From Mobula hypostoma (taxonomy: Eukaryota): a stretch of 64,000 bases of DNA. The translations under genes and the position numbers were made by a program. The DNA lies in NCBI RefSeq assembly GCF_963921235.1, contig NC_086097.1:82772001-82836000 (forward strand). Direction: 5' to 3'. Each line of letters opens with the position of its first letter. Position 1 is the stretch's first letter. This document shows positions 4,811 through 64,000 of the stretch, piece after piece. The notes beneath the pieces were generated by a model. It was not told the origin of the DNA, made no database searches, and was given only the letters and a program-made list of their open reading frames with translations.

Positions 4811-7599
4811 TGCAGTAATTGTAATGAGCAATTTCTGTGCCATGTTATCAGGAAGAACCTCCATTAGCTGTAATGCAGTCATAATCATATCTTAGTAGAG
4901 TGCCAGTAATGAATGTACTTTAGATGTGTTGAGATCTATGTGGCCCATTGTCACCACGGATGTACAATCCCTCTGCACTTCTATGTTCTATGTCATGCCA
5001 GGGTGGCCTGAGAAAATGCTTGTCTTCTCTTTGAACAGAACCCCAACTTGACACGGCTAACTTCACTTGGCTGAACTCATTTTCACACTGGAAAAACTTC
5101 CCCTTTATCTCCATTCACTATTTCACGTTTAGTTAAAGGAATCACATGGCTATAGTCTTCTTAGTCCCTGTCTAGTTCTGATGTAATCCAATTTGTCTCC
5201 CTCCACAAGTGCTGCTTGGTTTTACCAGCTGATGCATTAATTTCAGGTTTTCAGCAACTGCTGTAAGTGGGCACTATGGATTATTTTTTCTCTGTTTGTA
5301 GTTCCTGTAGAGTCTTCACTGTCTATCCACTAATATTAATCTCTACCATCCATTTTTCCTTGATCTGTAGTCGCCTGTTCTGTAGATCTCATTAATTATC
5401 TCCACTGCCCCCTTTGCAACTTAAAACTTACTTGTTATTAAAATTCTCTCACTTCAGATCAAGAGGCAGCAAGCTGAAATGTTGGTGCCGTTTTCTGCCC
5501 AAAGATGCTGCCCGAGCTATTTCAAGTACTTTCTGCATTTATTTTGGAAGTGCAGCATTTTCTTTTTTTTTAGCGTCTCGAAGTCTATATTTGCTTACCA
5601 TGATTTACCTGAAGGGCTCTTTTTCACAAGAGCTCTGAAGTTTCATTTATTCCTTTTAATCTTGTTTTGAGATGTAATGGATCAGATCTCCGCTTGCTCC
5701 TTCAAATGGAGCAGCTGAAAAGTGAGCAAGAGAATTCAAGCGCAGCATAAAATCTGCTTGCCTAACTTCTTGCTTAAATACAGAACAATTCTGCAAATTG
5801 ACAGGGGGTCTATTCCTGGTGAACACCTAAGTGAAGGCGGCAGCCAGGCTTGGGTTTTTTTCAACGGAATTTCACTTTGTATTAGACAGAAACACCTGAG
5901 TAAAATAGCCAACAGAGTCTAATCACAAAAATATGTGTATTTCCTTTAACACACAGCAAATCAAACACATAGAATTGAAGGTAGCAATTTAGCCCCAGTT
6001 TGCAGAACCAAGATGGTAGTAGTTGATAAAAATCTGACAAGTTCAGGCAAATGAAACAATCTCCATGAGACACGAATCTCATCCGGATGGTGAACCACTT
6101 AGCCACCAAGATGTGTCAGACTTGCTTTGGTATTTTACTTCAGGAAGTAAAATACCAAAGCAAGTCTGCCAAAGAAATAAACCTTCACTGAGTTCAGATC
6201 CTGAACCAAAGTGCTCAAAACAGAATTCAACTGGAAAGTTTGTAAGATCAGGAAAAATCTGAAAACAAATTGTTCTGCTTAATCTGTAAATGTTGTTCAT
6301 TACAGGCCCACCCTGGATTACGACATCCTTATTGACGAACATATTGAACATTGTGTTTGTCATTGCATATCCACAAACTCCCATTCTTATCATTAAATTT
6401 GAACATGAATCAGTCTGGTGGGGTGTGAAGAAAGCCCTGTTTATATGTAATCTTCCTGCAATAATCAGACCCCATGGTCTTCTGAGAACACACGCTCCCA
6501 GTTTCACCATGGGAGGCCATTTAAGAGATTTGCTTTGGAAATTGACAAGCAATCACTTCTTTTGATACCTATACAATGATACTGTCTTAAACAATGTGAC
6601 AGCCTTTAATTGCAGACACAGAACGTGAGACATACTGATTCTGTAACATTGTAACTGGGTAAGAGGAGATAATTAATTGATGTTGATGAGACCAATTAAT
6701 AGGTACACTTTTACAATATTGTAAAGGTGCAGTTAGCATATCAAGTGACTTATTGTATTTTCCAATTTATGACAAAATTGAGTTATGGGTATCTACAATA
6801 ATGCAGAACACCCATAACCCAGAGAAGACTTGTATCACGTATCATAATGAGTTACTTCCTAACTGAAATGCAGATGGCTCACTCACTTCTATCTTGGGTG
6901 AGAAATGACTGATGCCACAGTTTTACCCAAAGGGAGATGGTGCCAGCAGCTCCCTCTGCCCAAAAATTACCTTTGATATAAAATACTATTGCAGTATCAA
7001 AGGTGTTCCACTGGTTAAGCTGGCCTCAGGACTGTAACCACCACATCATTATATCAGCTAAAAATCCCTTTTCATCATGCTGCCAGTGTTATAAAACATT
7101 TACTGAGCTTCCATAAGTTATGAGTTATTGGAGCACAAGTAAAACGCCTTACAATCTTCTGCAAGGCAACTGCTGTCCTTGCAGGTACACTAAAATAACA
7201 CAATGGACTCAAAATATGTGAAAACTAAAATCCTTTTAAATAAGTTGAAAAATATCTCTGCTATATATTAAAAAAAAGAACCCTGTTGCCCTTATTTTAA
7301 ACACACATTTCTTTTTGTTTCTTCTCTGCCCGCTTTGCTCCAAAATATATAAGCTCAAAACATTGTCTCGTAATGTGATTTAATGTTAAATTTTTGAAAG
7401 TCGCCAGAGGAGTTGTATGATAGATGCAAGAATGATTGAATATACTTTATTTTCCTGCCTACAGTGATAATCATTGTTTTATACTAAACTGTATCACTTT
7501 TTGATCGCTACATTAAAAGATTATACTCATGTGAATTATTTAGACAAAGGAAAGGGATGCAAACTGTAATATTCCATTTGGTGTTTTTGGAGCATCATA

Positions 7600-8006
7600 T
7601 TTTTTACCCCTACACGCCTCTGTGAGCAAACAGAAAGTGACATCACTTAGGCCGATTATTACCATTGGGCTAGGATAAAATAAAAGCCTGATTCATGTGT
7701 AACTTTTCCTAGTGCATGCACTGAGTAGAGCTGAGCTGATAATGGGGCCTCTGCACTGAACTCAGTCAGCTTGGAGGATTATTTTGAGCACGGCGGGATT
7801 CATTCAAGCAAAGCTGGAACACTTTTAACCTGAGAGAGAGGAATTAAAGATCAACCCAGAGGCTCCACCCAGCAGTGCTGTGGAAGTGCATCTTACATTC
7901 TGCTGAACAGCCTGTGAAAATCAGTCTGTCCAGTTCACCTACATACCTCATCAGGAGTGTACAAGGCAATATTCCTCTCTGTATTGGTGACTGAATTTCT
8001 CTACTC
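7600..8006 (+). promoter_or_regulatory. Putative internal promoter/5'UTR of the alternative first exon
   Basis: TGACATCA (7638-7645), ATTGG (7664-7668), ATAAAATAAAA (7675-7685) and TGATAA (7737-7742) lie upstream of ATG 8007 in a stretch with few recognisable TEs. Motifs alone are weak evidence. Confidence 0.3.
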
Positions 8007-8097
8007 ATGTCTGCCCTGTCAGGAATACCTTCTGGTTGCATTGCATCTCATCAGAAGCCTTATAATATCATGGATGGGCGTTTCAAAAAATTGCAAG
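8007..8097 (+). CDS. SPTB: Candidate alternative first coding exon, MSALSGIPSGCIASHQKPYNIMDGRFKKLQ(D)
   Basis: ATG at 8007 with an in-frame upstream TGA (7992-7994). 30 codons + G, then donor AG|GTACAC at 8098. Phase 1 completes G|AT (Asp) with the exon at 29129. The end YNIMDGRFKKLQ resembles the SPTBN1 short-isoform YNQLEGRFKQLQ. Confidence 0.72.
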
Positions 8098-8879
8098 GTA
8101 CACTCTGTGCTGTGTTCGCTACTTTGATTGTAACCTATTTCTTATAGTAAAATGAAAGAGGAGAAAAAACATGTTCGTAATATCCTCAGGTGGTACAGAG
8201 TTTGTTTGTAACACATTCTGAAAATAAAATTGTCAGCTTTAATCGATGGCTTGGCTTGTATGTCACTGTTAATTGTACTTGAGCATAAAGCATTTCTGAG
8301 AATAGATATATTTAAAAAAAACGAGCAAGTGATGTGTCTCGGGACTAGAATTTATACACAAGAGGTAGTTAGGCTTCCAAAACAAGTTTAACAAAAATGC
8401 AAAATGGAATGTGTCACAGATTGCAGGATGAAGAACTACATAAATCAATCTGAGACTGGAAGCAGTTCTTTCATCTGAGTAACAGTCTTAGGCTGAACAA
8501 CGTGTGTTTCAAAAATTAAATAAATAGAGCTTTGGCGAGTTGTGTACCAGGACTGTCAGCACCATGAGTACTTTGGACTGTACACTGTGCTGCTTAGCAC
8601 TGACAGCAGATCAGTGTGTAGCCGTTGACACCAGCTGAATATCTATATCCTCCTTGAGCTGTTTGTGATCCAGCCATAGAATCCCATTTTCCAGAAATCC
8701 TGGGTTCTTTGTATTTTCTGTTCTGCTTTGGAACAAGCTAGAATAAATTATCTGGGTTTCTTCTCTTTCCTGGTAACTCTTTTTTTTTCAATTTGACTCA
8801 CCCTGAAGATAGGTATATGTGTCTAATTTTGGAATCATTATTCAGAATGACATCTTGACATCCTTTTGAGAATGTTGCT

Positions 8880-9200
8880 TGGTAGATTGTGGCCATTGAA
8901 GTAATTTTAAGTGTAGGAAATGCAGAGCAAGCTTTCATAAACAGGGATGTGATGATGATTAGGTAATTTATTTCAGTAATGCTGAATGAAGGTTGAATGT
9001 CAGCCAGGACTTTAATAATGCATCTGATTTTCAGAAGAGTGCCTTGAGACTTTTTCCATCTACTTGAGAGCTGAGGGACCTCAATTTAATGTGTCATATG
9101 GACAAAGAGCTTGGCTCCCTCACCTTACATGGATGTAAATCTTTCTTACAGCATTGTGATCAGAGCTATGCTCAGTACACGCCAGGCACTGCTGCAGACA
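8880..9200 (-). mobile_element. Old DeuSINE (SacSINE1/AmnSINE-like) copy
   Basis: Degenerate match to the recalled Deu-domain (..GTGCC.TG.GA.TTTT.C.TC.AC.TGAGAG..GG.CCTC..TTTAA.GT.TCAT..); similar to 24370-24700. Confidence 0.45.
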
Positions 9201-9739
9201 GTTCCATATTACAGGGAAAAATATGAATGTTTCCTAGGGTTAGAATTTTGTTGGCATGCTTTAATAAGATTAAGTTGTTTTTTTTGGATGAGGGGAGCCT
9301 GAGGAGGGAGAATTGGGGTGCATTAAATTTTGAGAGACATCAGGACCATTCTTGGATAGTCAAGGAGTCAAAACAAGGAATTATTAATGTATAATATCCA
9401 GTAGAAGGAAGACGAGGAAGGAATACTTTCACTAAGCCAGTGATGGGGACTGAAGGGATAGCTGAGACAAAAACCTTTATCATACATAAGATTAACTTAT
9501 GGCTATGGCAGATAAGATTCAGCTGGATAGCCTTTTTTTAAACTTGTACAGACATAATAGTCACATTGGCCTTCCATGTCATAAATTTTCTGTGATAATA
9601 AGAGGGTCAACCTGGATGTATTTTTGCTCCAGTCTCTAGAGTGACACTAGAAGCCGCAATCTTCTACAGAGAGTTGAGTGTTCCTTAGTAATTCTTCAGC
9701 ATCAAAATCTTAATGAAAATTATTCCAATTCTTTCAAAT

Positions 9740-10590
9740 TCAAGTTCAAGTTTAATTGTCATTCAACTCTACATGAATACCCATGAATACAGTCAGACAA
9801 AACAGCGTTCTTCCTGGGCCAAGGCGCAAAACTGATTATCATAAAAGGTGGCAGTAAACATACAGTCACACAAAAAATATAATATAATATAGCCCAGATC
9901 ATTGAGTGTCATGTTCTGTGGCTGATGCACATGGATGTTGTCAGCTATTGTAACATAAGAACATAAGAAATAGGAGCAGGAGTCGGCCATCTGGCCTGTC
10001 GAGCCTGCTCTGCCATTCACTAAGATCATGGCTGATCTGACCATGAACTCCTCTCCACCTACCTGCCTTTTCCCCATAACCCCGAATTCCCCTACTAGGC
10101 AAAAATCTATCCAACCTTATCTTAAATGTATTTACTGAGGTAGCCTCCACTGCTTCATTGGGCAGAGAATTCCACAGATTCACCACTCTCTGAGAAAAGC
10201 AGTTCCTCCTCATCTCCATCCTAAATCTACTCCCCTAAATCTTGAGGCTATGTATCCTAGTTCTCGTCTCACCTACCCATGGAAACAACTTTCCTGCCTC
10301 TATTTTGTCTGCCCCTTTCATGATCTTAAATGTTCCTGTAAGATCTCCTCTCATCCTCTCACAAGCCCACAGCAGTCCACAGATGAAAACAATCCAGCTT
10401 GTCTTCCACCGAGCGAACACTAGAGGGCAGCACAGCTGGGAGGGGCCAGAATGGAATTGCACCACTGCGTCTCCACCGTCTCTTCTCCAGGGCGGCTGCA
10501 ACGGGCAAGCCCGCTGCACGAGGCCTAGTCTGCACTTCAACCGAGGCCATGCAGTATCCTTACCATTGGTCTCGTTAATACACTAGTGAA
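9740..10590 (-). mobile_element. Retroposon fragment with a nested CR1 3' end (9951-10340)
   Basis: Minus-strand tail TTGAACTTGAA at 9740. The nested CR1 3' end encodes NCFSQRVVNLWNSLP and has a (CTTATGTT)n-type tail at ~9952-9970. Confidence 0.7.
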
Positions 10591-11059
10591 CAAGATTTGC
10601 AATAGTCTACATTACCAACATTCAACAGGATTTTGCTATCCACCCCAGTGTCTTTCAATCATAAAAAAATGTTTAAAAAAGACAATAAAAAGTTTTAAAA
10701 ATTCCGAGTGAACTGCCATCTTACCGGTTAATTGATAATTGTAAATTATCCTGTGATGAGACGAGGGATTAGGGTGGGTTCCTGAGTGGCATGGCTCGGG
10801 AGGGCCTGTTCTGCTCTGTGTCCCTAAATACAAGAAAAATTAAAATAAAATATACCCTGTATAGTTATAATAAATGGCTAATAATACTGAAATTTAACTC
10901 TATAAAAATACTTAATCTTACATCCTTTTGGGACAAACTGAAAAAATGCTGAACTTGTATTTTTGCAAGGAAGATCTTCCTTACACAAGGATTATGAGTA
11001 AATGGAAGCGGTTTTAAGGATAGGAATCTGGACATAGCCAGACAGCTGTTTCCTTTATA

Positions 11060-11335
11060 GATGATTTTTTTTATTTTACTGAGGTACAGTGCAGCATAGG
11101 CTCTCCCAGCCCTTTGAGCCACGCCACCCAGCAATCCCCGATTTAATTCTAGCCTAATCATAGTCCTACCAACCAGGAGGTCTTTGGACTGTGGGAGGAA
11201 ACTGGAGCAGCCAGAAGAAACCCACACAGTCATAGGGACAACGTAAAATGCCTTACAGGCAGTGATGGGATTAAACCCAGGTCGCCTGTACTGTAAAGCG
11301 TTGAGCTAACCATTATGCTACCATGCCACCCCATG
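11060..11335 (-). mobile_element. V-SINE/HE1-like tRNA-derived SINE
   Basis: Reverse complement of the head (GTGGCATGGTAGCATAATGGTTAG; GGGTTTAATCCC) and of the V-domain (TTTCCTCCCACAGTCCAAAGAC). A partial + copy lies at ~10690-10850. Confidence 0.8.
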
Positions 11336-11599
11336 GTAAGTGAGGGTTAATAATGGATGGGGCACATTTGACTATGCTACCTCATTTCCTATCCTCATAA
11401 CTTGTAGGTACTCTACCTTAATGAAAGCCAGGCATTAGCATTTTACACAGATTCTCGCCGTATTGGAGGATTTGACTAGTTAAGTGCTGGGGTGGCTGGA
11501 TGGCAGAGGAGACTGACACATGGTCTGGGTCAGATTCCTTACCACTCTTTAACTTCTCATTTAAGACCTATACTGTACCTTTGTGATTTGAAAGTATAC

Positions 11600-11900
11600 T
11601 GCTGTCCGCTCCTCATTGCTATCATCAAGGAGGAGATACAGGAGTGCGAAGACACACATTCAGTGTTGTAGGACCAGCTTCTTTCCCTCCACCATCATAT
11701 TTCTGAATGGACAATAGACCCATGTAAACTGTCTAATTTTTCCCCTCTCTTTTTGCACGCCTTATTAAATTTAATTATATATATATTTAATTGTAATGTA
11801 TAGTTTTCTATTATGTAATTGCACTGTACTTCCGCTTCAAAACAACAAATTTCATGACGTACTGTATGCCAGTGATATTAAAACTGTTCCTGATTCTTCA
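11600..11900 (+). mobile_element. Rex1/Babar LINE 3' end
   Basis: ATCATCAAGGAGGAGATACAGGAG..CAGCTTCTTTCCC..GTGATATTAAA..CTGATTCT, shared with other copies. Confidence 0.7.
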
Positions 11901-12944
11901 CTGACCCTAGAGCTCCCCACTGTAGACCAATAGTCCTGAGGGTAATTTGCGATAGGTAATAAATGTTGGTTTTAGATCTTACAATTTTTAAAAAAAAGAC
12001 AACTCTGTGGGCTATACCACTATTCTATACAATATCCATTGGAAATGGTGATCAGGAAATCACTCCTACTTCTCCCCACTGCCATTTGCATACATCAAGC
12101 AAAGGAAAGAAGGAGAGGCTTGTGGCAATTCCGGCAGAAAGAATGGAAGGAATTCCTAATTGGACTGGTTGGTCTTAGCTCTGTGTAACCGTCTCCATTC
12201 TCTGCCATGATCCTGTCTACAACTGTAACCTGCGGAGGAGCTTAGTCATGATACGGCATCTTTTGTTCTTCAAAATGATGGGCATTTCACCAAAAAGCCC
12301 TTCCATGGCCATACATTTCAAAAGCTTGCTTTCCTATGGTTTCACATATAGGTCATAGATTATCAAGAAAAGGACACATGTTAATTTCTTTTTGTGACAG
12401 AAGTATTTTCTCACTTAATTGGTCTCCATTAAAGAGGCCTCACCAATCTCCATAAAGAAAGCCATTAATCTTTAATTTAATTTTACTGGTTACGAATGGA
12501 CAGCCTGTACATTTGAAGGAGTGTCTGGCAGACCAACAGGATGGATGGTGATGGATTAGTTGGCTTCTACAGGCTGCAAGCATCATCTACCAGGTGGGAA
12601 CGGGCCACTTCTACATGCCTTCTCCTCCATCCCCACCACCTCTCTGAGCCACAACATTCGGGATCAGGGTCAAGCCCAGCAGAGCTGGGGATGTTAAACA
12701 AGCTCACTTGCTGGGTCATGGAGGCCAGCTGGCAGCCGCTCTCCCTGCGCCTACTCACTCTCCCATTGCAGCCGTTTCTGTGGTGCTCTCCCACAGAATG
12801 TCCTTTGTTCTTTTGAACTCACAAACAGCTTGAGTTATCAACAATTCTCAGAACTGGAACATTTTGTAACCTGGGGACTCGGGTATTTTTGAAAGTTACC
12901 AGGATCGGGCTTCTTTCACCATTTGATTTCAATGTTCCATTACG

Positions 12945-13110
12945 TAAGATCATAAGACAAAGGAGCAGAATTAGGCCATTTGGCCCATCAAGTCTGCTCT
13001 GCCATTCAATCACGGCCGATCCTTTTCTCCTTTTCTCCCCTTCTCAGCCCCACTCCCCAGCCTTCTTCCCATAGCCTTAAATGCCGTGTCCAATCAAGGA
13101 CCTATCACCT
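12945..13110 (-). mobile_element. CR1 LINE 3' end
   Basis: ATAAGACAAAGGAGCAGAATTAGGCCATTTGGCCCATC is the reverse complement of the CR1 3' terminus seen at 21730-21797. Confidence 0.7.
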
Positions 13111-16100
13111 TCCATCTATGTTTGCTCCATCAACGTCCTGTCCAGGGAATACTGCTGAATATTAACATTCATTCTACCTTGAACTCCACATTTTATTTCA
13201 AATAGTGTTTTGGACAATACTCGTCTTTGAGTGTCTTTGCATGCGATTTTTAAAAATACAGCTAATAATTAAACTAAGGAATTAGTTAAAATCTACTACA
13301 GTTGCAAGGTCTTGGTCATAAGTGCTTCATATAGCTAAGGCTATAATGCCATAGCATTCACTGAAAGGAACGTCACTGGCTGAACACAATACTGTACTCG
13401 AATGGGAAATGACTGTAAGATGTATATTTACCTATCCCTTGTTTAGATACATTGTCTTATTATGCTGTTTGTATACTGAATATCCTCAGGGAAGTTGTGA
13501 GATGACACAATGTTTCATATCTCCTGGCATTTACTTTCAGCTTTATATGCAGGACAATCCCATAAATAATGGTTAAATTCAACCATTTAACACAAAAGCA
13601 GAGAAAGGATCCATCTCAATTCCATCCCAGTCTTATTGGTTACTGATAACATGGGAATTTAACCAGTTTTCCTTTCCCATTCCATTGTCTATTCACCAGT
13701 TCAGTGCCATTTAGACATCAAACATTTATAATGTCACATGGATTTCCACTGAAGTGTTTTTTCATGTACAGTAAGTAGTCTATTTTCGTCTGCTGCACAG
13801 CATTTGAGTAACTTTATGTGTCCCTGCCACATTCCATCCCGTACCTTGTTGTTTCAGGTACTGGTTGTGATTGGGTAATTTATTCTTCCCTCAAAGCCCT
13901 AGCCAAGTTTTGTCATTTGCATGGAACAGAAAATCACAGAGGCAGATGAGCCTATGCAACAGTGTCAGTTGCACGTCATATGTCTGATGCCACATGCATG
14001 AAAATTTTTACAGCACATCTACATTTGTAGTATTGGCATGAGCCTTGAAAGTTGAAGCAGGCTTTTGCCTGAGGTGATGTGATCTCTTCAACTGATGATC
14101 CTTGCTGTACACTCCTACCTCCAAGATATCAATATCATTGGGCATAAGAAATGCATGGTTATTGACCCTCTAGCACCCTCCTCTTTTCAAGAACAAAAGT
14201 TCACCAAAGTATCAGGATTGTTGAAAGGAATGGTTCATTGACAGCTTTAACTCCCATTTTCAAACATTTTCAAAAATTAGGCAAATGATAAGTGAATCAA
14301 TGCCCGGAAATTTATCGTAGTCAAAATGGTCACCAGTTAGAGGTTTCTTAGTTATCCTTTATTGCACTTCTGTCTATTTATAAAGCTATCTCTGCATCAC
14401 AGTATAGCATGCCTTTGCAGTGGCAATTCAGTTGTTAATTTAGGCTCAGTGTGGTAGAAAGCCCACTGCTGGATGGAAGGGTGATGGAGTGGGAGAACGT
14501 GTCATCAGATGGATATGCTACACGAGAGCCAGAGGTTACCACTGACACTCTGAATTTCCAGTTGTTGCCTCAATGGAAACTTGTGGTTGTTGGTTAGCCG
14601 CTCCTGAACAGCATATCCATCTGCCGACAATATGTCCCACTCCCTCATGTGGAAAGACTGTGAAGATATGGAAACAACAGATAACTGGCAATGGCATACA
14701 CGTGGATTTAGATTTAACTGGAGGGGGTATTTAATATACTCATATGGAAACAAAGGTTTGTTAGAGTCATAGAACACTACAGCACATACACAGGCCCTTT
14801 GGCCCATCTAGTCTGTGCTAAACTATTAATCTGCCTAGTCCCATTGCCTGCACCCAGACCATAGCCCTCCGTACCCCTCACATTTATGCACCTATTCAAA
14901 TTTCTCTTAAGTGTTGAAATCAAACCCACATCCACTACTTACACTGGCAGCTCTTTCCACAGTCTCCCCATCCCCTAAGTGAAGAAGTTCCCCCCTCATG
15001 TTCCCTTTAAACATTTCACCTTTTACCCTTAATGCATGACCTCTAGTTCTAGTCTCACCCAATCTCAGTAGAAAAAACCGCTCATGATTTTGTGTATAAA
15101 AACAGTAGTAGTGAGGATGGGGATCGTATTAAACAGGAAATTAGAAATGTGTGCAATAAAGGAACAGCAGTTATAATGGGTGACTTCAATCTACATGTAG
15201 ATTGGGTGAACCAAATTGGTAAGGGTGCTGAGGAAGGATTTCTTGGAATGTATGCGGGATGGTTTTTTGAACCAACATAGCGAGGAGCCAACTAGAGAGC
15301 AGGCTATTCTGGACTGGGTATTGAGCAATGAGGAAGGGTTAATTAGCAATCTTGTCATGAGAGGCCCCTTGGGTAAGAGTGACCATAATATGGTGGACTT
15401 CTTCATTAAGATGGAGAGTGAAATAGTTAATTCAGAAACAAAGGTTCTGAACTTAAAGAAGGGTAACTTTGAAGGTATGAGACATGAATTAGCTAAGATA
15501 GACTGGCAAATGACACTTCAAGGGTTGACGGTGGATATGCAATGGGAAGCATTTAAAGATCGCATGGATGAACTACAACAATTGTTCATCCCAGTTTGGC
15601 AAAAGAATAAATCAAGGAAGGTAGTGCACCCATGGCTGACAAGGGAGATTAGGGATAGTATCAATTCCAAAGAAGAAGCATACAAATTAGCCAGAGAAAG
15701 TGGCTCACCTGAGGACTGGGAGAAATTCAGAGTTCAGCAGAGGAGGACAAAGGGCTTAATTAGGAAGGGGAAAAAAGATTATGAGAGAAAACTGGCAGGG
15801 AACATAAAAACTGACTGTAAAAGCTTTTATAGATATGTGAAAAGAAAAAGATTGGTTAAGACAAATGTAGGTCCCCTACAGACAGAAACAGGTGAATTAA
15901 TTATGGGGAGCAAGGACATGGCAGACCAATTGAATAATTACTGTCTTCACTAAGGAGGACATAAATAATCTTCCAGAAATAGTAGGGGACAGAGGGTCCA
16001 GTGAGATGGAGGAACTGAGGGAAATACATGTTAGTAGGGAAGTGGTGTTAGGTAAATTGAAGGGATTAAAGGTGGATAAATCCCCAGGGCCAGATGGTCT

Positions 16101-16972
16101 GCATCCCAGAGTGCTTAAGGAAGTAGCCCAAGAAATAGTGGATGCATTAGTGATAATTTTTCAAAACTCTTTAGATTCTGGACTAGTTCCTGAGGATTGG
16201 AGGATGGCTAATGTAACCCCACTTTTTAAAAAAGGAGGGAGAGAGAAACCAGGGAATTATAGACCGGTTAGCCTAATATCGGTGGTGGGGTAACTGCTAG
16301 AGTCAGTTATCAAAGATGTGATAACAGCACATTTGGAAAGCGGTGATATCATCGGACAAATTTAGCATGGATTTGTGAAAGGAAAATCATGTCTGACGAA
16401 TCTCATAGAATTTTTTGAAGATGTAACTAGTAGGGTGGATAGGGGAGAACCAGTGGATGTGGTATATTTGGATTTTCAAAAGGCTTTTGACAAGGTCCCA
16501 CACAGGAGATTAGTGTGCAAACTTAAAGCACACGGTATTGGGGGTAAGGTATTGATGTGGATAGAGAGTTGGTTGGCAGACAGGAAGCAAAGAGTGGGAA
16601 TAAACGGGACCTTTTCAGAATGGCAGGCAGTGACTAGTGGGGTACCACAAGGCTCAGTGCTGGGACCCCAGTTGTTTACAATATATATTAATGACTTGGA
16701 TGAGGGAATTAAATGCAGCATCTCCAAGTCTGCGGATGACACGAAGCTGGGCGGCAGTGTTAGCTGTGAGGAGGATGCTAAGAGGATGCAGAGTGACTTG
16801 GATAGGTTAAGTGAGTGGGCAAATTCATGGCAGATGCAATTTAATGTGGATAAATGTGAAGTTATCCACTTTGGTGGCAAAAACAGGAAAACAGATTATT
16901 ATCTGAATGGTAACATACATCAAAGTTGCTAGTGAACGCAGCAGGCCAGGCAGCATCTATAGGAAGAGGCGC

Positions 16973-17008
16973 AGTCGACGTTTCAGGCCGAGACCCTTCG
17001 TCAGGACT
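16973..17008 (-). ncRNA. Minimal type I hammerhead ribozyme motif (antisense arm)
   Basis: Reverse complement reads AGUC-CUGACGA-AGGGUCUCGGCCU-GAAAC-GUC-GACU. Confidence 0.7.
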
Positions 17009-17009
17009 T

Positions 17010-17045
17010 AGTTCTGACGAAGGGTCTCGGCCTGAAACGTCGACT
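17010..17045 (+). ncRNA. Minimal type I hammerhead ribozyme motif
   Basis: AGUU-CUGACGA-A-GGGU-CUCG-GCCU-GAAAC-GUC-GACU: stem I AGUU/GACU, intact CUGANGA and GAAA core, GUC cleavage triplet, palindromic ACGU in place of stem III. Confidence 0.7.
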
Positions 17046-19435
17046 GCGCCTCTTCCTATAGATGCTGCCTGGCCTGCTGCGTTCACCAGCAACTTTGATG
17101 TATGTTGCTTGAATTTCCAGCATCTGCAGAATTCCTGTTGTTTGCATTTAAATTATCTGAATGGTGGCTGATTAGGAAAAGGGGAGGTGCAATGAGACCT
17201 GGGTGTCATTATACACCAGTCATTGAAAGTGCGCATGCAGGTACAGCAGGCGGTGAAAAAGGCGAATGGTATGCTGGCATTTATAGCGAGAGGATTCGAG
17301 TACAGGAGCAGGGAGGTACTACTGCAGTTGTACAAGGCCTTGGTGAGACCACACCTGGAGTATTGTGTGCAGTTTTGGTCCCCTAATCTGAGGAAAGACA
17401 TCCTTGCCATAGAGGGAGTAGAAAGAAGGTTCACCAGATTGATTCCTGGGATGGCAGGACTTTCATATGATGAAAGACTGGATCGACTAGGCTTATACTC
17501 GTTGGAATTTAGAAGATTGAGGGGGGGATCTGATTGAAACATATAAAATCCTAAAGGGATTGGACAGGCTAGATGCAGGAAGATTGTTCCTGATGTTGGG
17601 GAAGTCCAGAACGAGGGGTCACAGCTTGAGGATAAAGGGGAAGCCTTTTAGGACCGAGATTAGGAAAAACTTCTTCACACAGAGAGTGGTGAATCTGTGG
17701 AATTCTCTGCCACAGGAAACAGTTGAGGCCAGTTCATTGGCTATGTTTAAGAGGGAGTTAGATATGGCCCTTGTGGCTAAAGGGATCAGGGGTATGGAGG
17801 GAAGGCTGGTGCAGGGTTCTGAGTTGGATGATCAGCTATGATCATACTGAATGGCGGTGCAGGCTCGAAGGGCCGAATGGCCTACTCCTGCACCTATTTT
17901 CTATGTTTCTATGTATAAAGCCTCTCTAAACCTCTCATGATTTTGTATACCTCTAACAAATCTCCCACCATTCCTTTATGCTCGAGGGAGTAAAGTCCTA
18001 ACCTATCAAGCTTTCCCTATAACACAGGTCCTTAAGTCTTGGGAACATCCTTGTCAATTTTCTCTGTACGCCTTCAAACTTACTGACATATTTCCTATAG
18101 ATAGGTTATCAGAACTGTATATAATTCTCCAAATTAGATCTTATCAATGTCCTATATAACTTCAACATACAATCCGAACTCCTGTACTCAATACTTTGAT
18201 CTGTGATGCCATTTTCAAGTAATTGCATTCGTAGATCCCTCTGTTCTCCTGCACTCCTCAGTGCCCTATCATTCACCATCGAAGTCCCACCCTGGTTTGT
18301 CCTCCCAAAGTGCAACACCTCACACTTGTCAGCATTAAATTCCACCCGTCATTTTTCAGGCTGATGCAAATCCTGCTTCTAGTTTTGATAGTCTTCCTTG
18401 CTGTCCACTATACCTCAAATATTGGTATCATCTGCACATTTGCTGATGCAGTTTACCACACCATCATCCAGATAGTTGATATGGATGACAAACAACAATG
18501 GATCCAGCACCGATATCTGTGACACAACGCTAGTCTCAGGCCTCCAGTCAGAGAGGCAACCATCTGAAATCAATATCTGATCCAATTTACTAACTCATCT
18601 TGAATGCAAGCAACTGAACCTAGCTCCTATGTAGGACCTCGTCAAAGGCCTTGCTGTAGTCCATGTAGACAACATCTGCTTCCTTGCTTTCATCAACTTT
18701 CCTGGTAACTTCCTTGAAAAACTCTGAAATATTGGTTAGACCTACCATATACAAAGCCTTGTTGACTATCCCTGTCTGTCCAAATACTTCAATACCCTGT
18801 CCCTTAGAGTGAAACTGAAGGAGAGATTTTCTTCACTGAGTCTGTGCTAGTCCTTTTTATGCTTAAACACACATGCACATACTTGTGTATACTTAAAAGT
18901 ACATGGTTATTAGGATCCAGGTTTCTCATTACTCACTACAGTACAGATCATTTGTAACTGGTTGATTACTGTTTCTCCTAGCCTATCTGGCACAGGAAAA
19001 ATATGCCAGATAGTGTCTTTTTTTTCTAAATTGTCTCAAGACTATATAATGTAATTATATATGTATGTGTGTGTAAAACAAGTAATTTTCGTACATTATT
19101 CTCTGAATAAATGGCTGACCATTGTGCTTTGTGTTGTTCAAAAAGCAATGTTAAGTCTAAATCTCAGAAGGGTTTGGATGCATTCAGATATTTTTTTAAA
19201 TTGTGCATTCTTCCTGTAGCAATGACATGATAATGCAATAGGTAAGTTATTTCATTTGTTCACATATTTTGTTATCTTCAGCTTGAACAAAAGCTGTTTT
19301 TTAATTCTACTATTTATTACAGCCATACAAATGCCTTGTAATGCTTATACGTTTAATCTATGTCAATGGACTTGGCTTGGTCATTAAAAGGAGACTGTCC
19401 ACTACCCTCTGCTCAAATAATGATCCATACCATCT

Positions 19436-29128: not shown

Positions 29129-29280
29129 ATGAACGTGAAGTTGTGCAGAAGAAGACCTTCACCAAATGGGTGAACTCTCATTTGGCACGTGTGACTTGCC
29201 GCATTACTGACTTGTACACTGACCTTCGGGATGGCCGCATGCTGATTAAGCTGCTGGAGGTTCTGTCTGGGGAGCTACTG
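29129..29280 (+). CDS. SPTB: Spectrin beta exon, CH1 ([14 protein letters not shown]...LSGELL), 152 nt
   Basis: Acceptor ttttgcag and donor gtatgt; classic spectrin CH1 sequence. Confidence 0.96.
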
Positions 29281-30450: not shown

Positions 30451-30624
30451 CCAAAGCCAACGAGAGGTCGGATGCGTATACATTGCTTGGAAAATGTTGA
30501 CAAGGCTCTCCAGTTTCTCAAGGAACAGAAGGTGCACCTGGAAAATATGGGGTCACACGATATTGTTGATGGGAGCCACAGACTGACACTAGGACTTATT
30601 TGGACCATCATTCTTCGCTTCCAG
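30451..30624 (+). CDS. SPTB: Spectrin beta exon, CH1 ([15 protein letters not shown]...IILRFQ), 174 nt
   Basis: Acceptor aattag and donor gtaact; phase 0/0. Confidence 0.96.
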
Positions 30625-31857: not shown

Positions 31858-31949
31858 ATCCAGGATATCACAGTGGAAACCGATGACTATAGTGAGACTC
31901 GGTCAGCAAAGGACGCACTTCTCCTTTGGTGTCAGATGAAAACAGCAGA
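31858..31949 (+). CDS. SPTB: Spectrin beta exon ([30 protein letters not shown]), 92 nt
   Basis: Acceptor atttcag and donor gtgagt; translated by hand (not in the ORF track). Confidence 0.95.
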
Positions 31950-32102: not shown

Positions 32103-32183
32103 ATATCCTAATGTAAACATCAGAAACTTCACATCAAGCTGGAAAGATGGCTTAGCATTTAATGCCCTTATCCACAAACACAG
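32103..32183 (+). CDS. SPTB: Spectrin beta exon, CH2 ([27 protein letters not shown]), 81 nt
   Basis: Long polypyrimidine tract with cctag acceptor and gtaatg donor; 153-nt upstream intron. Confidence 0.95.
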
Positions 32184-34702: not shown

Positions 34703-34818
34703 GCCTGATTTGATTGAGTTTGACAAACTGAAAAAGTCTAATGCCATGCACAACTTACAGAATGCCTTTGATGTCTCCGAGAGGCATCTGAATGTGACCA
34801 AACTGCTGGATCCCGAGG
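34703..34818 (+). CDS. SPTB: Spectrin beta exon, CH2 ([13 protein letters not shown]...LLDPE), 116 nt
   Basis: Acceptor cttcag and donor gtaagt. Confidence 0.95.
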
Positions 34819-36092: not shown

Positions 36093-36205
36093 ATGTCTTT
36101 ACAGAGAATCCAGATGAAAAATCAATCATTACCTATGTGGTGGCATTTTACCATTATTTCTCCAAGATGAAGGCATTAGCAGTGGAGGGGAAAAGGATTG
36201 GCAAG
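36093..36205 (+). CDS. SPTB: Spectrin beta exon ([38 protein letters not shown]), 113 nt
   Basis: Acceptor cccag and donor gtttgt; translated by hand. Confidence 0.95.
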
Positions 36206-39264: not shown

Positions 39265-39452
39265 GTGCTGGATAGTGCAATTGAAACCCAGAAAATGATC
39301 GAGAAATATGAAGAGTTGGCATCTGACCTGCTAACGTGGATCGAGCAAACCATCATTGTCCTGAACAGTCGGAAGTTTGCCAACTCATTGACTGGGGTGC
39401 AGCAGCAGCTGCAGGCCTTCAACACTTACCGCACAGTGGAAAAACCTGCAAA
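39265..39452 (+). CDS. SPTB: Spectrin beta exon, repeat 1 ([15 protein letters not shown]...VEKPAK), 188 nt
   Basis: Acceptor ttcttag and donor AA|gtcagt. Confidence 0.95.
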
Positions 39453-42229: not shown

Positions 42230-42347
42230 ATTCCAGGAGAAGGGTAACCTTGAAGTACTGCTGTTCTCCATCCAGAGCAGGATGAGGGCAAACAACCAGA
42301 AAGTGTACACACCACATGAGGGCAAACTTATCTCGGACATTAATAGA
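42230..42347 (+). CDS. SPTB: Spectrin beta exon ([39 protein letters not shown]), 118 nt
   Basis: Acceptor tctcgacag and donor gtaaga; translated by hand. Confidence 0.95.
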
Positions 42348-43537: not shown

Positions 43538-43696
43538 GGCTGGGAAAGACTGGAGAAGGCAGAGCATGAACGTGAGCTGGTCCTCAGGAATGAACTGATC
43601 AGGCAGGAGAAACTGGAGCAGCTTGCCCGCCGTTTTGATCGCAAGGCCTTTATGAGGGAGACCTGGCTGTATGAGAATCAACGACTGGTGTCGCAG
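43538..43696 (+). CDS. SPTB: Spectrin beta exon ([13 protein letters not shown]...NQRLVSQ), 159 nt
   Basis: Acceptor gaatag and donor gtaaag; translated by hand. Confidence 0.95.
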
Positions 43697-44459: not shown

Positions 44460-47137
44460 CCAGTCTCCCCTTCCCCCACCACCAATTTACAGTTCTGTGT
44501 CTCTCAGGTCCCACCATCAGCTCTTGGTTCCTCCCACCCCACCTTCCTTGAAAACCCCAACCATCCCCTCTCCTCAGTTACTACTAACCCCCTTCCCCCC
44601 TCTGATCCCAACTCTCATCTGTGCTGGATCTTCACAATTGCCTCTGACCTTCCCCTCTGTAAGGCAAAACATTCTGTCCCCAGTAAGGGCCTCACCTTTG
44701 TCCCCCTGCACCCACACCGCAGCGCGTTCTGCGCCCGCCATGACGCTGAGCTCTTCTTCTGTCGCCTCTGCCTCCGTGCCTACTTCTTTGGCAAGGACCC
44801 TCCACCCCACACCAATGATCCCTTCTCCCATCTTCAGCCGTCCTCCTCTTCCTGGATACCACACCCTGGTCTTCTGCCTGCTCTGGATCTTTTCATTGGT
44901 AACTTCCAATGAGACATCAACCGTCTCATCTTTACATCTCCTCTCTCCAAATCAAACCTCACTCCCTCTGAGTGCACTGCTCTCCACTCTCTCTGCACTA
45001 ATCCTAACCTCACCATCAAACTCGCAGATAAGGAGGGTTCTGTAGTAGTCCGGTGGACTGACCTCTACCTTGCTGAGGCCAGGTGACAACTCTCAGACAC
45101 CTCCTCTTACTGACCCCTCGAACAGGACCCCACTAAGGAACACCAGGTTATTGACTCCCACACCATCACTGACCTTATTAACTCTGGGGATCTCCCATCC
45201 ACTGCCACCCACTTCACAGTTCCCGCACCCCACACCTCCCATTTCTATTCCCTACTCAAGATTCACAGAACCACTTGTCCAGGTAAACCCATTGTGTCTG
45301 CTTGTTCCTGCCGCACTGAATGTATATCTGCATTTCTTGACTCTGTTTTATCCCTGCTGGTTCAGTCCCCTCCTACCAACATCTGTGACACTTCACATGT
45401 TCTAGATCTTTTCAATTACTTTGAATTCCCTGGTCCTGATCATCTTATTTTCACCATAGACATCCAGTCCCTATGTACCTCCATCCCCTACCAGAAAGGC
45501 CTTAAAGCTCTCCGTTTCTTTCTAGACAACAGACCCCACCTGTTTCCCTCCACCACCACTCTCCTCCATCTGGTGGAACTTGTCCTCACTCTCAATAATT
45601 TCTCCTTAGGCTCCTCCCACTTCCTTCAAACAAAAGGTGTAGCCGTAGGTACTCGAATGACTATGCCTCATATGGGCACTCGCACCATGTCTGCCATTTC
45701 GTGGGCAACGTGGAACTGTCTATGTACCAAGCCCACAATGGTATTACTCCCCAACTTCTCCTATGCTCCAACAATAACTGCATTGGTCCTGCTTCCTGCA
45801 CCCACACTGAGCTCATCAACTTCATCAACTTTACCTCCAACTTCCACCCTGCTCTCAAATTTACCTGGTCCATTTCCAACACCTCCCTCCCCTTTCTCAT
45901 TCTGTCTGTCTCTATCTCTGGAGACAGTTTATCTACTGATACCCTTTATAAACCCACTGATTCTCACAGCTGTCTGGACTATACCTCTTTCCCATCCTGT
46001 CACTTGTGAAAACGTCAGCCCCGTCTCTCAGTTCCTCCCCCCCCCTCCATATTTGCTCCCAGGATGAGGTTTTTCATTCCAGAACTAATGAGATGTCCTC
46101 ATCCTTCAAAGAAATGGGCTTTCCTTCCTCCGCCACAACGCTGCCTTCTTGTCCTCATTTACCACCCATTAGCCTCTGCGTCCAGCTCATAATTCTCCAT
46201 AACTTCTGCCATCTCCAATGGGATCCCACCACCAAGCACATCTTTCCCTTCCCCCACCCCCACCCCACTTTCTGCTTTCCATAGTGATCGCTCCCTACAC
46301 GACTCCCTTGTCCATTCATCCCTCCTCACTGATCTCTCTCCTGGTACTTATCCTTACAAGCGGAACTAGTGCTACACCTGCCCCTACACCACCTCCCTCA
46401 CTTTCATTCAGGACCCCAAATAGCCCTTCCAGGTGAAGCGACACTTCACCTGTGGGTCTGTTGGTGTCATCTACTGTATCCGGTGCTCCCAGTGTGACCT
46501 CTTGTATATTGGCGAGAGCCAACACTGATTGGGAAACCACTTTTCTCTGTCCGACAGGAAAAGTGGGGTCTCCGAGTGGCCACCCATTTCAATTCTGCTT
46601 CCCATTCCCATTCTGACATGTCAGTCCATGCCCTCCACTACTGCCGCGATGTGGCCACACTCAGGTCACAGGAGCGATACCTTATAAACTGCCCATGTAG
46701 CCTCCAACCTGATGACATGAACATTGACTTCTCAAAATCCGGTGATTGCCGCCCCCCCCCCCCACACCCCTCAACATTCTCCATTCCCGCTTCCCCCCTC
46801 TCATCTTACCTGCATCAACCCCCTTCTGGGGGGCCCTCCCCCTTCCCTTTCTTCCATGGTCTTCTACCCTCTCCTATCAGATTCCCCCTTCTCCAGCCCT
46901 TTATCTCTTTCACCCATCAACCTCCCAGATCTTTACTTCACCCCTCCCCCTCTCCCGCTTTCACCCATCACCTGCCACCTTGTACTACTTCCTCCCCTCC
47001 CCCCACCTTCTTGCTCTAACTTCTCATCTTTTGTTTCCCAGTCCTGATGGAGGGTCTCGGACCAAAATGTCAATTGTTCAGTCTTTTCCTTAGATGCTGC
47101 CTGGGCTGCTGAGTTTCTCCAGCATTTTCTGTGTGTA
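44460..47137 (+). mobile_element. Penelope-like element, long degenerate copy (RT + GIY-YIG + 3' hammerhead remnant)
   Basis: Frameshifted ADKGG, FTIDIQSLCTSIP, LTLNNF, FHPALKFTW, GVIYCIRC..LYIGE, VATHFNS. Degenerate GTCCTGATGG..CAAAATGTC at 47041. Possible TSD CTAGTTCTA (44445 / 47139). Confidence 0.87.
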
Positions 47138-49653: not shown

Positions 49654-49956
49654 GATAATTTTGGCTATGATCTTCCAGCTGTGGAAGCAGCAATGAAGAA
49701 GCATGAAGCAATTGAGACAGATATCGCTGCCTATGAAGAACGTGTGCAAACCCTTGTGGATGTGTCTCAGGAGCTGGAGGCTGAGAATTATCACGACATT
49801 ACACGTATTAATGCCAGAAAAGAAAACATCATGCGCCTATGGGAGTATCTTTTGGAGCTGCTTAATGCTCGGCGAGCGAGGCTGGAAATGAATTTAGCCC
49901 TTCAGAAGATTTTCCAGGAGATGCTTCACATTATTGACTGGATGGATGAAATGAAA
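49654..49956 (+). CDS. SPTB: Spectrin beta exon ([13 protein letters not shown]...WMDEMK), 303 nt
   Basis: Acceptor ccacag and donor gtatgt. Confidence 0.96.
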
Positions 49957-57225: not shown

Positions 57226-57376
57226 ATACGACTTTTATCAGAGGATTGTGGTAAACATTTGATGGGTGTCGAGGACTTGCTCCAGAAACATGCGCTGCAG
57301 GAAGCTGACATTGTGGTTCAAGCAGACAGAATGAAAATCATCAATGCAGAAGCACTCAAGTTTACTGAAGGAGAAG
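57226..57376 (+). CDS. SPTB: Spectrin beta exon ([22 protein letters not shown]...KFTEGE), 151 nt
   Basis: Acceptor tttcag and donor G|gtgcat. Confidence 0.94.
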
Positions 57377-58542: not shown

Positions 58543-59413
58543 GTTACACACCCTGTGATCCCAATATAATCAGGGATCGTGTCAATCATCTGGAACTGTG
58601 CTATGAGGAGCTTTGTACGTTGGCAGCTGAAAGGAAAGCCCGCCTTGAACAATCACGCCGGTTTTGGTCATTCTTCTGGGAGATGGCTGAAACTGAGAGC
58701 TGGATCCGAGAAAGAGAGCAGATCTTCTCATCACAAGATTATGGGAAAGATATTACCAGCATTATGATTCTGCAAAACAAACATAAAACACTGGAAGATG
58801 AATTAGTTGGTCTCAGGACTCAGTTGCAGCAAACGATTAAACTGGGCAATGATATGATTACAGAGAACCACTTTGCTTCACCTGAGATCAAGAAACGCAT
58901 TGAGGAAGTCCTTGCGATGTGGAGGGATTTGGAGGAATTGGCGGCTTTCCGCAAGCAAAATCTTCTGCATGCTCAAAGCTTCTTCCAGTATCAAGTGGAT
59001 GCAGATGATCTCAAAACTTGGTTACAGGACACTCACCGTATTATGTCTTCAGATGATGTCGGCCATGACGAATTTTCAACACAGACACTGGTGAAGAAAC
59101 AAAGAGACCTTACAGATGAAATCATGAAGTCTGCGACAGCAATTGATGGTCTAAATAAACAGCTTCAGAGCCTCCCAGATGAATTCAGAAAATTACCAGA
59201 GATAGTGGACCGACAGAGGGAGATAAAGGAGCTCTATACAGACCTTGTGGCCCTATCAGATCTACGGAGGCAACAGCTCCAGGATGCTCTTGCTCTCTAT
59301 GTGATGTTTCGTGAAGCTGATGCATGTGATTTGTGGATGACTGAGAAGGAGAAGTGGCTGGAGGGAATTGATATTCCAAATAAAATAGAGGATTTGGAAG
59401 TAGTACAACACAG
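58543..59413 (+). CDS. SPTB: Spectrin beta large exon (GYTPCDPNIIRDR...DLEVVQHR), 871 nt
   Basis: Acceptor ttttccag and donor AG|gtacaa; several spectrin repeats with typical Trp periodicity. Confidence 0.96.
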
Positions 59414-61993
59414 GTACAAGCTGATTATTTATCTTGTACTTCCAGTAAGACTGTTCAGATCAAACATATCAGTCTCACAGTCAGTTAAATGACACATTTA
59501 AAGTCCTGAATATTTTGCAAGTGCAGATAAAACAATACATGGGCTCTTCAGAATGCATTTCTGTGTCAGTAACATCTTCTCTGGAATATGAATGGTTAAG
59601 ATGGGAACTAAAAGAGATTTTCAAATTTATGACGTGGAAGGATAAATAGTGAAACCGTATTTCCACTTATTGGAATATTTTGCCTCAAAGTGCTTTTATA
59701 GAGAAGCAATTTAAAATGAAATTGGATAAGCATTTGGAAAGAATGCATTTGAAAGGCTGCAAGGATAAAGTAGATCTAACTGCAGAGCTTCTATTGAAAA
59801 AGCACAATATGGGTATTTCAGGCTAAATCACTTGGTGGGGAACCAGCGCGTTTTCCTCTCCACCCAATATGACTCCCCATTTACTTGAATGGGAACAAAA
59901 TCAACTAGGATTTAAGGCTGGTGTTATACCCAGTTTAATCCATGTTCTCATGGGTGCATTGGGTTCAATTGCTCTATGTGAAGGCACATACTTTTAAATT
60001 TTATGTTTTAGAGATCCTATATCCTTACACCTATACCAAAAGGCATTCCTTCTCTCTGCTAGCCAGCAGGCCTTTCTCAGGCAAGGTGTAGCACTTGCTT
60101 AGTTTCCCCCCCCACCCCAACCCAAACAGGGTCACATGAAGCCATAGCAGCATCTGGTGGATGGTCCTACAAGCAGCAGGTGCATACCTTTGGCAGGCAG
60201 ACAATATCTGAAGAGTATAGATAATGGCTGAGGTCACCCGTCTTGTAAAGACACTGCCCAGAAGAAGGGAATGGAAAACCATTACTGCAGAAAAATTTGC
60301 CAAGATCAATCATGGTCATTGAACATGATCGCCCACATCATACAACACAGCTCATAATGATGGTGATAGTGATGACATCCTTAAATATTTGTTGACTGGG
60401 TATAAATTATTCCATGTTTAATACAGATTTACCTAAAGTAATTCTGCTGCCTAAATTATTCTTCACATACAGTGCAAATTATGTAAGCCTCAGGGGTACT
60501 TAGGAACTTCAAATGTTTCAGAATCTTAAACAATTATCACATAGATAGTCAGTGGTTTGAAAGATTATGATATAGTTGGGATCACAGAGACATGGCTCCA
60601 GGGTGACCAGGGATGGGAGCTCAACGTTCAGGGATATTCAATATTCAGGAGGGATAGACATGAAGGAAGGGGAGGTGGGGAGGTGTTGCTGGTTAAAGAA
60701 GAGATTAATGCAATAGAAAGGAAGGACATAAGCCGGGAAGATGTGGAATCGATATGGGTAGAGCTGCGTAACACTAAGGGGCAGAAGACGCTGGTGGGAG
60801 TTGTGTACAGGCCACCTAACAGTAGTAGTGAGGTCGGAGATGGTATTAAACAGGAAATTAGAAATGTGTGCAATAAAGGAACAGCAGTTATAATGGGTGA
60901 CTTCAATCTACATGTAGACTGGGTGAACCAAATTGGTAAAGGTGCTGAGGAAGAGGATTTCTTGGAATGTATGCGGGATGGTTTTTTGAACCAACATGTC
61001 GAGGAACCAACTAGAGAGCAGGCTATTCTAGACTGGGTTTTGAGCAATGAGGAAGGGTTAATTAGCGATCATGTCGTGAGAGGCCCCTTGGGTAAGAGTG
61101 ACCATAATATGGTGGAATTCTTCATTAACATGGAGAGTGACATAGTTAATTCAGAAACAAAGGTTCTGAACTTAAAGAGGGGTAACTTTGAAGGTATGAG
61201 ACGTGAATTAGCTAAGATAGACTGGCAAATGACACTTAAAGGATTGACGGTGGATATGCAATGGCAAGCATTTAAAGGTTGCATGGATGAACTACAACAA
61301 TTGTTCATCCCAGTTTGGCAAAAGAATAAATCAAGGAAGGTAGTGCACCCGTGGCTGACAAGAGAAATTAGGGATAGTATCAATTCCAAAGAAGTAGCAT
61401 ACAAATTAGCCAGAGAAAGTGGCTCACCTGAGGACTGGGAGAAATTCAGAGTTCAGCAGAGGAGGACAAAGGGCTTAATTAGGAAGGGGAAAAAAGATTA
61501 TGAGAGAAAACTGGCAGAGAACATAAAAACGGACTGTAAAAGCTTTTATAGATATGTAAAAAGGAAAAGACTGATAAAGACAAATGTAGGTCCCCTGCAG
61601 ACAGAAACAGGTGAATTGATTATGGGGAGCAAGGACATGGCAGACCAATTGAATAATTACTTTGGTTCTGTCTTCACTAAGGAGGACATAAATAATCTTC
61701 CAGAAATAGTAAGGGACAGAGGGTCCAGTGAGATGGAGGAACTGAGCGAAATACATGTTAGTAGGGAAGTGGTGTTAGGTAAATTGAAGGGATTGAAGGC
61801 AGATAAATCCCCAGGGCCAGATGGTCTGCATCCCAGAGTGCTTACGGAAGTAGCCCAAGAAATAGTGGATGCATTAGTGATAATTTTTCAAAACTCGTTA
61901 GATTCTGGACTAGTTCCTGAGGATTGGAGGGTGGCTAATGTAACCCCACTTTTTAAAAAAGGAGGGAGAGAGAAACCGGGGAATTATAGGCCG

Positions 61994-63583: not shown

Positions 63584-64000
63584 ATTATAGGCCGGTTAGC
63601 CTAACGTCGGTGGTGGGGAAACTGCTGGAGTCAGTTATCAAGGATGTGATAACAGCACATTTGGAAAGCGGTGAAATGATCGGACAAAGTCAGCATGGAT
63701 TTGTGAAAGGAAAATCATGTCTGACGAATCTCATAGAATTTTTTGAGGATGTAACTAGTAGAGTGGATAGGGGAGAACCAGTGGATGTGGTATATTTGGA
63801 TTTTCAAAAGGCTTTTGACAAGGTCCCACACAGGAGATTAGTGTGCAAACTTAAAGCACACGGTATTGGGGGTAAGGTATTGGTGTGGGTGGAGAATTGG
63901 TTAGCAGACAGGAAGCAAAGAGTGGGAATAAACGGGACCTTTTCAGAATGGCAGGCGGTGACTAGTGGGGTACCGCAAGGCTCAGTGCTGGGACCCCAGT

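Follow-up and report, generated by a model that had tools for sequence, protein, structure and literature searches.

An alternative first exon of the beta-I spectrin gene (SPTB) of Mobula hypostoma, with counterparts in SPTBN1 and SPTBN2, that is predicted to exchange the segment preceding CH1

In dystrophin and utrophin, whose genes are distinct from beta-spectrin, CH1 is preceded by alternative first exons. In plectin 1a, also a different gene, variable N-termini are likewise spliced to a constant tandem-CH domain (PMC5676748). Among the beta-spectrins, the role of this region is best documented for beta-III-spectrin. According to PMC8810934, CH1 of this protein begins at D53, a helix made up of S37-A52 lies on actin and is continuous with CH1 helix A, and function and SCA5 toxicity in flies both depend on the N-terminus. 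Deletion of residues 1-51 of beta-III-spectrin abolishes actin binding (PMC5676748). The structural and actin-binding work cited here deals with the canonical N-terminus only. For human SPTBN1, an alternative promoter with tissue-differential use has been validated by RT-PCR (PMC2875023), and the accessible portion of that report does not state the resulting protein end. The SPTBN1 and Sptb isoform papers concern, in their accessible portions, C-terminal isoforms (PMC12041481, PMC2764345, and PMC5889275). In a literature search that covered main texts, few of them from subscription journals, we found no study of an alternative N-terminus of SPTB or SPTBN2 and none of its sharing across paralogues or its actin binding; a search with the peptide sequence as the term returned 0 papers. 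An alternative beta-spectrin promoter is already known, from human SPTBN1, and an orthologous SPTB isoform is already predicted in RefSeq.

The window analysed here is a stretch of 64,000 nucleotides of M. hypostoma contig NC_086097.1. An ATG at 8007 opens a coding segment that extends to 8097 and reads MSALSGIPSGCIASHQKPYNIMDGRFKKLQ. The acceptor of the shared exon downstream is TTTTGCAG/AT at 29129, and the joining of 8097 to 29129 keeps the frame and leads into DEREVVQKK, the start of CH1. The features of the locus are as follows.

7796..8006, + strand: 5' UTR of the alternative exon, minimum extent (covered by the X3 contig, which has no loose 5' end)
7992..7994, + strand: in-frame TGA upstream of the ATG at 8007 (window sequence)
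8007..8097, + strand: coding portion of the SPTB alternative first exon, 91 nt = 30 codons + 1 nt, final residues DGRFKKLQ
8023..8097, + strand: candidate internal cassette form with an open phase-1 acceptor at 8022/8023 (15/20 pyrimidines; no RNA support seen)
8098..8103, + strand: GT donor, phase 1, AAG/GTACAC (the loose end of the X3 contig begins exactly there)
29129..29280, + strand: shared exon opening CH1 (D-EREVVQKK), 152 nt (sequence, protein match, and X3 contig)
30451-30624, 31858-31949, 32103-32183, 34703-34818, 36093-36205, 39265-39452, 42230-42347, 43538-43696, 49654-49956, 57226-57376, and 58543-59413, + strand: eleven further SPTB coding exons, all AG..GT

The arrangement that the preliminary description had proposed, i.e. 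a 91-nt exon with an ATG, an upstream in-frame stop, and a phase-1 donor that joins in frame 21 kb downstream, is confirmed in the sequence, and no ATG occurs in 7743-8006. The canonical exon (ending in RSRIKALA), which that description had not found in the window, was again absent from it, both in a six-frame reading and in a tblastn search with the Callorhinchus canonical N-terminus. The exon ends at its phase-1 donor with [ED]GRF[KR]xLQ, the pattern that defines the alternative exon of beta-spectrins. When all 1547 GT sites in 1-29128 were ranked with a profile built from SPTBN1 and SPTBN2 alternative ends only, with SPTB rows excluded, the donor at 8097 took first place with a score of 40.2 (runner-up 9.2, mean -17.1, sd 8.4). 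The match of the exon to the alternative ends is therefore not due to chance. The Kozak context of a second in-frame ATG, at Met22 (8070-8072), is better (A at -3 and G at +4) than that of the ATG at 8007 (C at -3 and T at +4). Since Met22 is kept in Callorhinchus, leaky scanning could yield a 9-residue N-terminus. Generic searches with the exon gave little: phmmer with the 30-mer against 1.84 billion representatives returned 11 matches, nearly all of them multi-stretch repeats (the one inspected, P0124, was a chance repeat), the scores in the ESM Atlas were all <0.9, and a homologue search with the exon extended into the intron, among proteins of up to 2000 aa, yielded no candidate. No Rfam match was found in 5500-18000.

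The gene that carries the exon is SPTB. The 13 exons give an uninterrupted reading frame of 869 aa in which spectrin repeats come after the tandem CH domains, and the CH1 exon finds its best PDB match in 8iah_M. The window protein shares 85% identity with Callorhinchus SPTB (839 aa compared) and 63-76% with the other 25 rows. In midpoint-rooted trees of 27 and 13 rows, built without SPTBN4, chondrichthyan SPTBN1, or an outgroup, its sister is Callorhinchus SPTB (100/99), within an SPTB clade (100/100) that also holds mammalian, squamate, and ray-finned SPTB. Placement as an SPTBN1 or an SPTBN2 orthologue was rejected (AU p 6.7e-47 and 9.1e-49, respectively), so the assignment to SPTB made in the preliminary description holds. 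The tree contradicts two sets of names: a later RefSeq release calls the Callorhinchus SPTB orthologue 'non-erythrocytic 1' (P0246, XP_042193997.1), and chondrichthyan SPTBN2 orthologues are named 'non-erythrocytic 1-like' in RefSeq. At the CH2 junction 31947-31949/32103, the window reads KTAE, compared with KTAG in Callorhinchus and the alignment consensus, which may reflect either a genuine substitution or a mistake in the assembly.

Splicing of the exon was looked for in contigs of 4 of the 14 listed sequencing runs (X1-X4), whose RNA status was guessed, none being on record as RNA, and which were aligned to 6600-9000. A 331-nt contig of X3 (depth 21.5) spans 7796-8097, and its remaining 29 nt are the same as the first 29 of the exon at 29129. 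This contig shows the predicted 8097^29129 splice. X3 comes from a related species, with 6 differences in 302 nt (about 98% identity to the window). All 6 lie in the 211-nt UTR and 0 in the 91 coding nt, a distribution that is weak alone (p about 0.12, calculated by hand). Of the 4 RNA-like runs, 1 thus carries the junction, in one contig that extends only 29 nt beyond it and stems from a different species. The X1 contig (7505-8158) passes unspliced through the donor into the intron, and the X2 contig (8012-8184), which has zero differences from the window, is also unspliced at the donor, as would be expected of pre-mRNA or DNA. For X4, no contig aligned within 6600-9000. The contig data reveal neither start site, strand, nor level. 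Low-depth contigs of X1 and X2 also fall together on one 200-nt intronic stretch at 6677-6886, which has no Rfam match. The segment 8007-8097 is confirmed as a real alternative exon of the beta-I spectrin gene, most likely a starting one.

The intronic parts of the window contain several repeat elements. At 16912-17106, a short interspersed repeat that is common in the window lies in two copies placed head to head, whose 97-nt arms, 98% complementary and 1 nt apart, form a near-perfect hairpin in the intron. The long intronic ORFs 45114-46067, 60545-62134, and 62423-63595 are, judged by eye, reverse-transcriptase/endonuclease-like pieces that resemble LINE-type and Penelope-like retroelements.

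The closest counterpart of the new isoform is SPTB isoform X2 of Callorhinchus milii (XP_007886307.1, taken from its EukProt copy), a product of the orthologous gene with a 30-residue alternative N-terminus joined at the same junction. It is identical to the window exon peptide in 18 of 30 residues and in 11 of the last 12 (tblastn E 1e-5), in agreement with conservation of the exon in another chondrichthyan SPTB, and the Callorhinchus SPTB cluster also has a canonical-start isoform. The two differ in that Callorhinchus is a holocephalan and has QLQ where the window has KLQ; X2 is a RefSeq prediction for which no study was found. In ray-finned fish, sptb models (zebrafish XP_005158906.1, bowfin XP_066550926.1, and sturgeon) carry the end [LV]LDGRF[RK]QLQ on the same CH1 exon. 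The alternative N-terminus of teleost sptb is 140-270 residues long and Ser/Pro-rich, and that of bowfin has 28 aa. In most teleost sptb models (P0130-P0178), the extended N-terminus ends in a conserved MRRARWLS..SNI.FNSILDGRF. The exon had been described as hidden and tied to one lineage, which does not stand, as RefSeq already models its counterpart in Callorhinchus, zebrafish, bowfin, and many teleosts.

The same end is found in two paralogues. The alternative N-terminus of SPTBN1 (beta-II; primate P0012 and rodent XP_005070396.1) is identical to the window in 8 of the last 12 residues and has the same splice position; human NM_178313 presumably carries this N-terminus. The preliminary description had likened the exon to the start of a short SPTBN1 isoform, and this is correct for the N-terminal ends but not for the rest of the protein: rodent SPTBN1 models of 2154-2156 aa combine the alternative end with a short PH-less C-terminus, whereas most SPTB versions are long-tailed, with the long KK-type tail in 52 of 63 alternative-start models among the selected rows. 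SPTBN2 (beta-III) models (skate XP_055520757.1, lungfish XP_043916434.1, and loris XP_053417070.1) have [IV]LEGRFKQLQ at the same junction, together with the LSPAA..N..QY signature that is this paralogue's own, and the alternative SPTBN2 end was found in sharks, rays, ray-finned fish, lungfish, frogs, marsupials, and a primate.

A search that took the first 40 residues of an Astyanax sptb model as the query gave 556 matches, the best 120 of which were listed, and the invariance of GRF..LQ is partly a product of the way in which rows were collected. In total, 219 of 286 proteins had a usable N-terminus and were classed by best score as alternative, canonical, or other: 63/29/1 for SPTB, 11/31/6 for SPTBN1, and 65/12/1 for SPTBN2, the rows being redundant and selected, so that the counts are not frequencies. 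Rows with the alternative end occur inside the SPTB, SPTBN1, and SPTBN2 clades, and those of each clade have a signature of their own. Compared between paralogues, these ends resemble one another: in each of the 3 pairings, 0 of 300 shuffles reached the observed score. The conservation across paralogues is confined to the last 8-12 residues, and the part upstream ranges from about 20 to >250 residues. Alternative and canonical ends did not exceed shuffles (11-31 of 300 ungapped and 243 of 500 gapped, at low power with 14-20 residues). An origin of the exon by duplication of the canonical exon is unsupported, since the similarity between the two lies within the shuffle range. Among tetrapods, the clusters of the 10 proteins that were looked up contained no SPTB bearing the alternative end, and the 3 tetrapod SPTB N-termini compared (2 from bear and 1 from jaguar) are all canonical.

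The presence of the [ED]GRF[KR]xLQ exon in SPTB, SPTBN1, and SPTBN2 models from across the jawed vertebrates indicates that it predates the duplications that separated these genes, in a comparison whose rows contain no lamprey, invertebrate, or SPTBN4 sequence. The idea that the design is older than the SPTB/SPTBN1 split is thus supported and can be widened, since SPTBN2 models carry the exon too. The SPTB family has been placed in a vertebrate paralogon (PMC6298421). In the simplest history, the two-exon layout would have existed in a single ancestral vertebrate beta-spectrin and would then have been copied with the gene.

When the window protein is aligned with beta-III-spectrin, D53 falls opposite the residue that opens the shared exon at 29129. 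The phase-1 splice falls in the codon of the D53-equivalent Asp, so the choice of exon replaces the whole module in front of CH1 and nothing else. The replacement of the N-terminal extension beside CH1, suggested earlier, therefore has a precise structural correlate in the boundary between the helix and CH1 of beta-III-spectrin. Counted back from the splice, the alternative end agrees with the canonical end at four positions (Leu at -2, basic at -4, hydrophobic at -5, and Arg at -6), and it differs in Gly at -7 and in an acidic residue in place of Arg at -8. The last 16 residues carry a net charge of +3 in the window, equal to the canonical +3, and +1 in four other alternative ends checked; a simple argument from charge thus fails for this species. 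In an AlphaFold model of the alternative-start actin-binding domain, a helix covers residues 14-49 with a mean pLDDT of 47.7, and the canonical control was at <50 over 1-298, values too low for either model to be informative. No PDB chain matched the exon peptide at E up to 10.

We consider it probable, although well short of certain, that transcripts from what is likely a second, internal promoter of SPTB carry this exon joined to the first CH1 exon, and that the swapped segment would retune actin affinity or its regulation. The alternative end is predicted to still bind actin because the four positions -2, -4, -5, and -6 are retained. It would do so as a short helix, shorter than the canonical one or kinked, and the affinity for actin would be different and probably lower. 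The acidic, phosphorylatable stretch upstream in the canonical form would be dropped. The choice of promoter would in this way exchange the segment with which the protein grips actin in front of CH1 and alter the affinity or its regulation. The broader proposal, that beta-I, beta-II, and beta-III spectrins inherited an ancestral promoter-driven switch of actin binding between a canonical helix and a GRF-type end of differing affinities, is offered tentatively and as somewhat less probable than its negation.

Several other explanations account for part of these data. The exon might merely serve a second promoter, for use in particular tissues or at particular times, with a peptide that forms an equivalent helix and leaves actin binding unchanged. 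This would be in line with the conservation of just the last 8-12 residues between paralogues, with a variable part upstream, and with the canonical net charge of the last 16 residues in the window. It is less easily reconciled with an alternative motif that departs from the canonical end in the same way in three paralogues while resembling it no more than shuffles do, a combination which suggests a distinct constraint, and we regard this explanation as unlikely. An end that binds actin poorly or not at all, so that spectrin is held off actin or switched by a ligand, is very improbable. Loss of the canonical N-terminus abolishes binding and the N-terminal helix of plectin binds calmodulin in competition with actin (PMC5676748), and Gly -7 would be expected to break a long helix, but the helix-face residues at -2, -4, -5, and -6 agree with the canonical end, and fly spectrin with a truncated N-terminus is non-functional and mildly toxic (PMC8810934).

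Two further explanations concern the exon itself. If it were an internal cassette, with the canonical exon spliced to the acceptor at 8022/8023, the protein would contain both pre-CH1 modules in tandem. The pyrimidine content of this acceptor is within the range of 12 true acceptors (11-18), both modules occur in 13 of 65 SPTBN2 and 16 of 63 SPTB alternative-end models among the selected rows, and tandem SPTBN2 models exist in RefSeq for Heterodontus, Hypanus, and Hemiscyllium. However, the X3 contig extends 211 nt 5' of the ATG with no joint, Callorhinchus SPTB X2 begins at the corresponding Met, and many of the tandem SPTB rows are UniRef models that resemble read-through of the canonical donor, which makes a cassette in this gene quite improbable. 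Together with the open acceptor, several SPTBN2 models in RefSeq that have the two modules in tandem (P0212, P0260, P0262, P0235, and P0290, from sharks, a ray, and frogs) suggest a hybrid first/internal exon. That the exon is a decaying relic no longer spliced in this species is scarcely credible: X1 and X2 are purely unspliced across the donor, as a relic would be, but the ATG, frame, and donor are intact, the identity to Callorhinchus is retained, and the junction is present in the close relative.

Since RefSeq already predicts orthologous isoforms, the annotation of the exon is by itself ordinary. Its value lies in the comparison, in which three paralogues share one motif, maintained from sharks to mammals, in place of exactly the segment that is needed for actin binding and for SCA5 toxicity. 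The purpose of the second N-terminus of spectrins is thereby reduced to one binding experiment, and attention is drawn to an SPTBN2 isoform that is beyond the scope of the cited SPTBN2 studies, as far as their accessible sections go. If the proposed switch is true, then cell types with the alternative SPTBN2 start would react differently to SCA5 mutations, the toxicity of which depends on the N-terminus.
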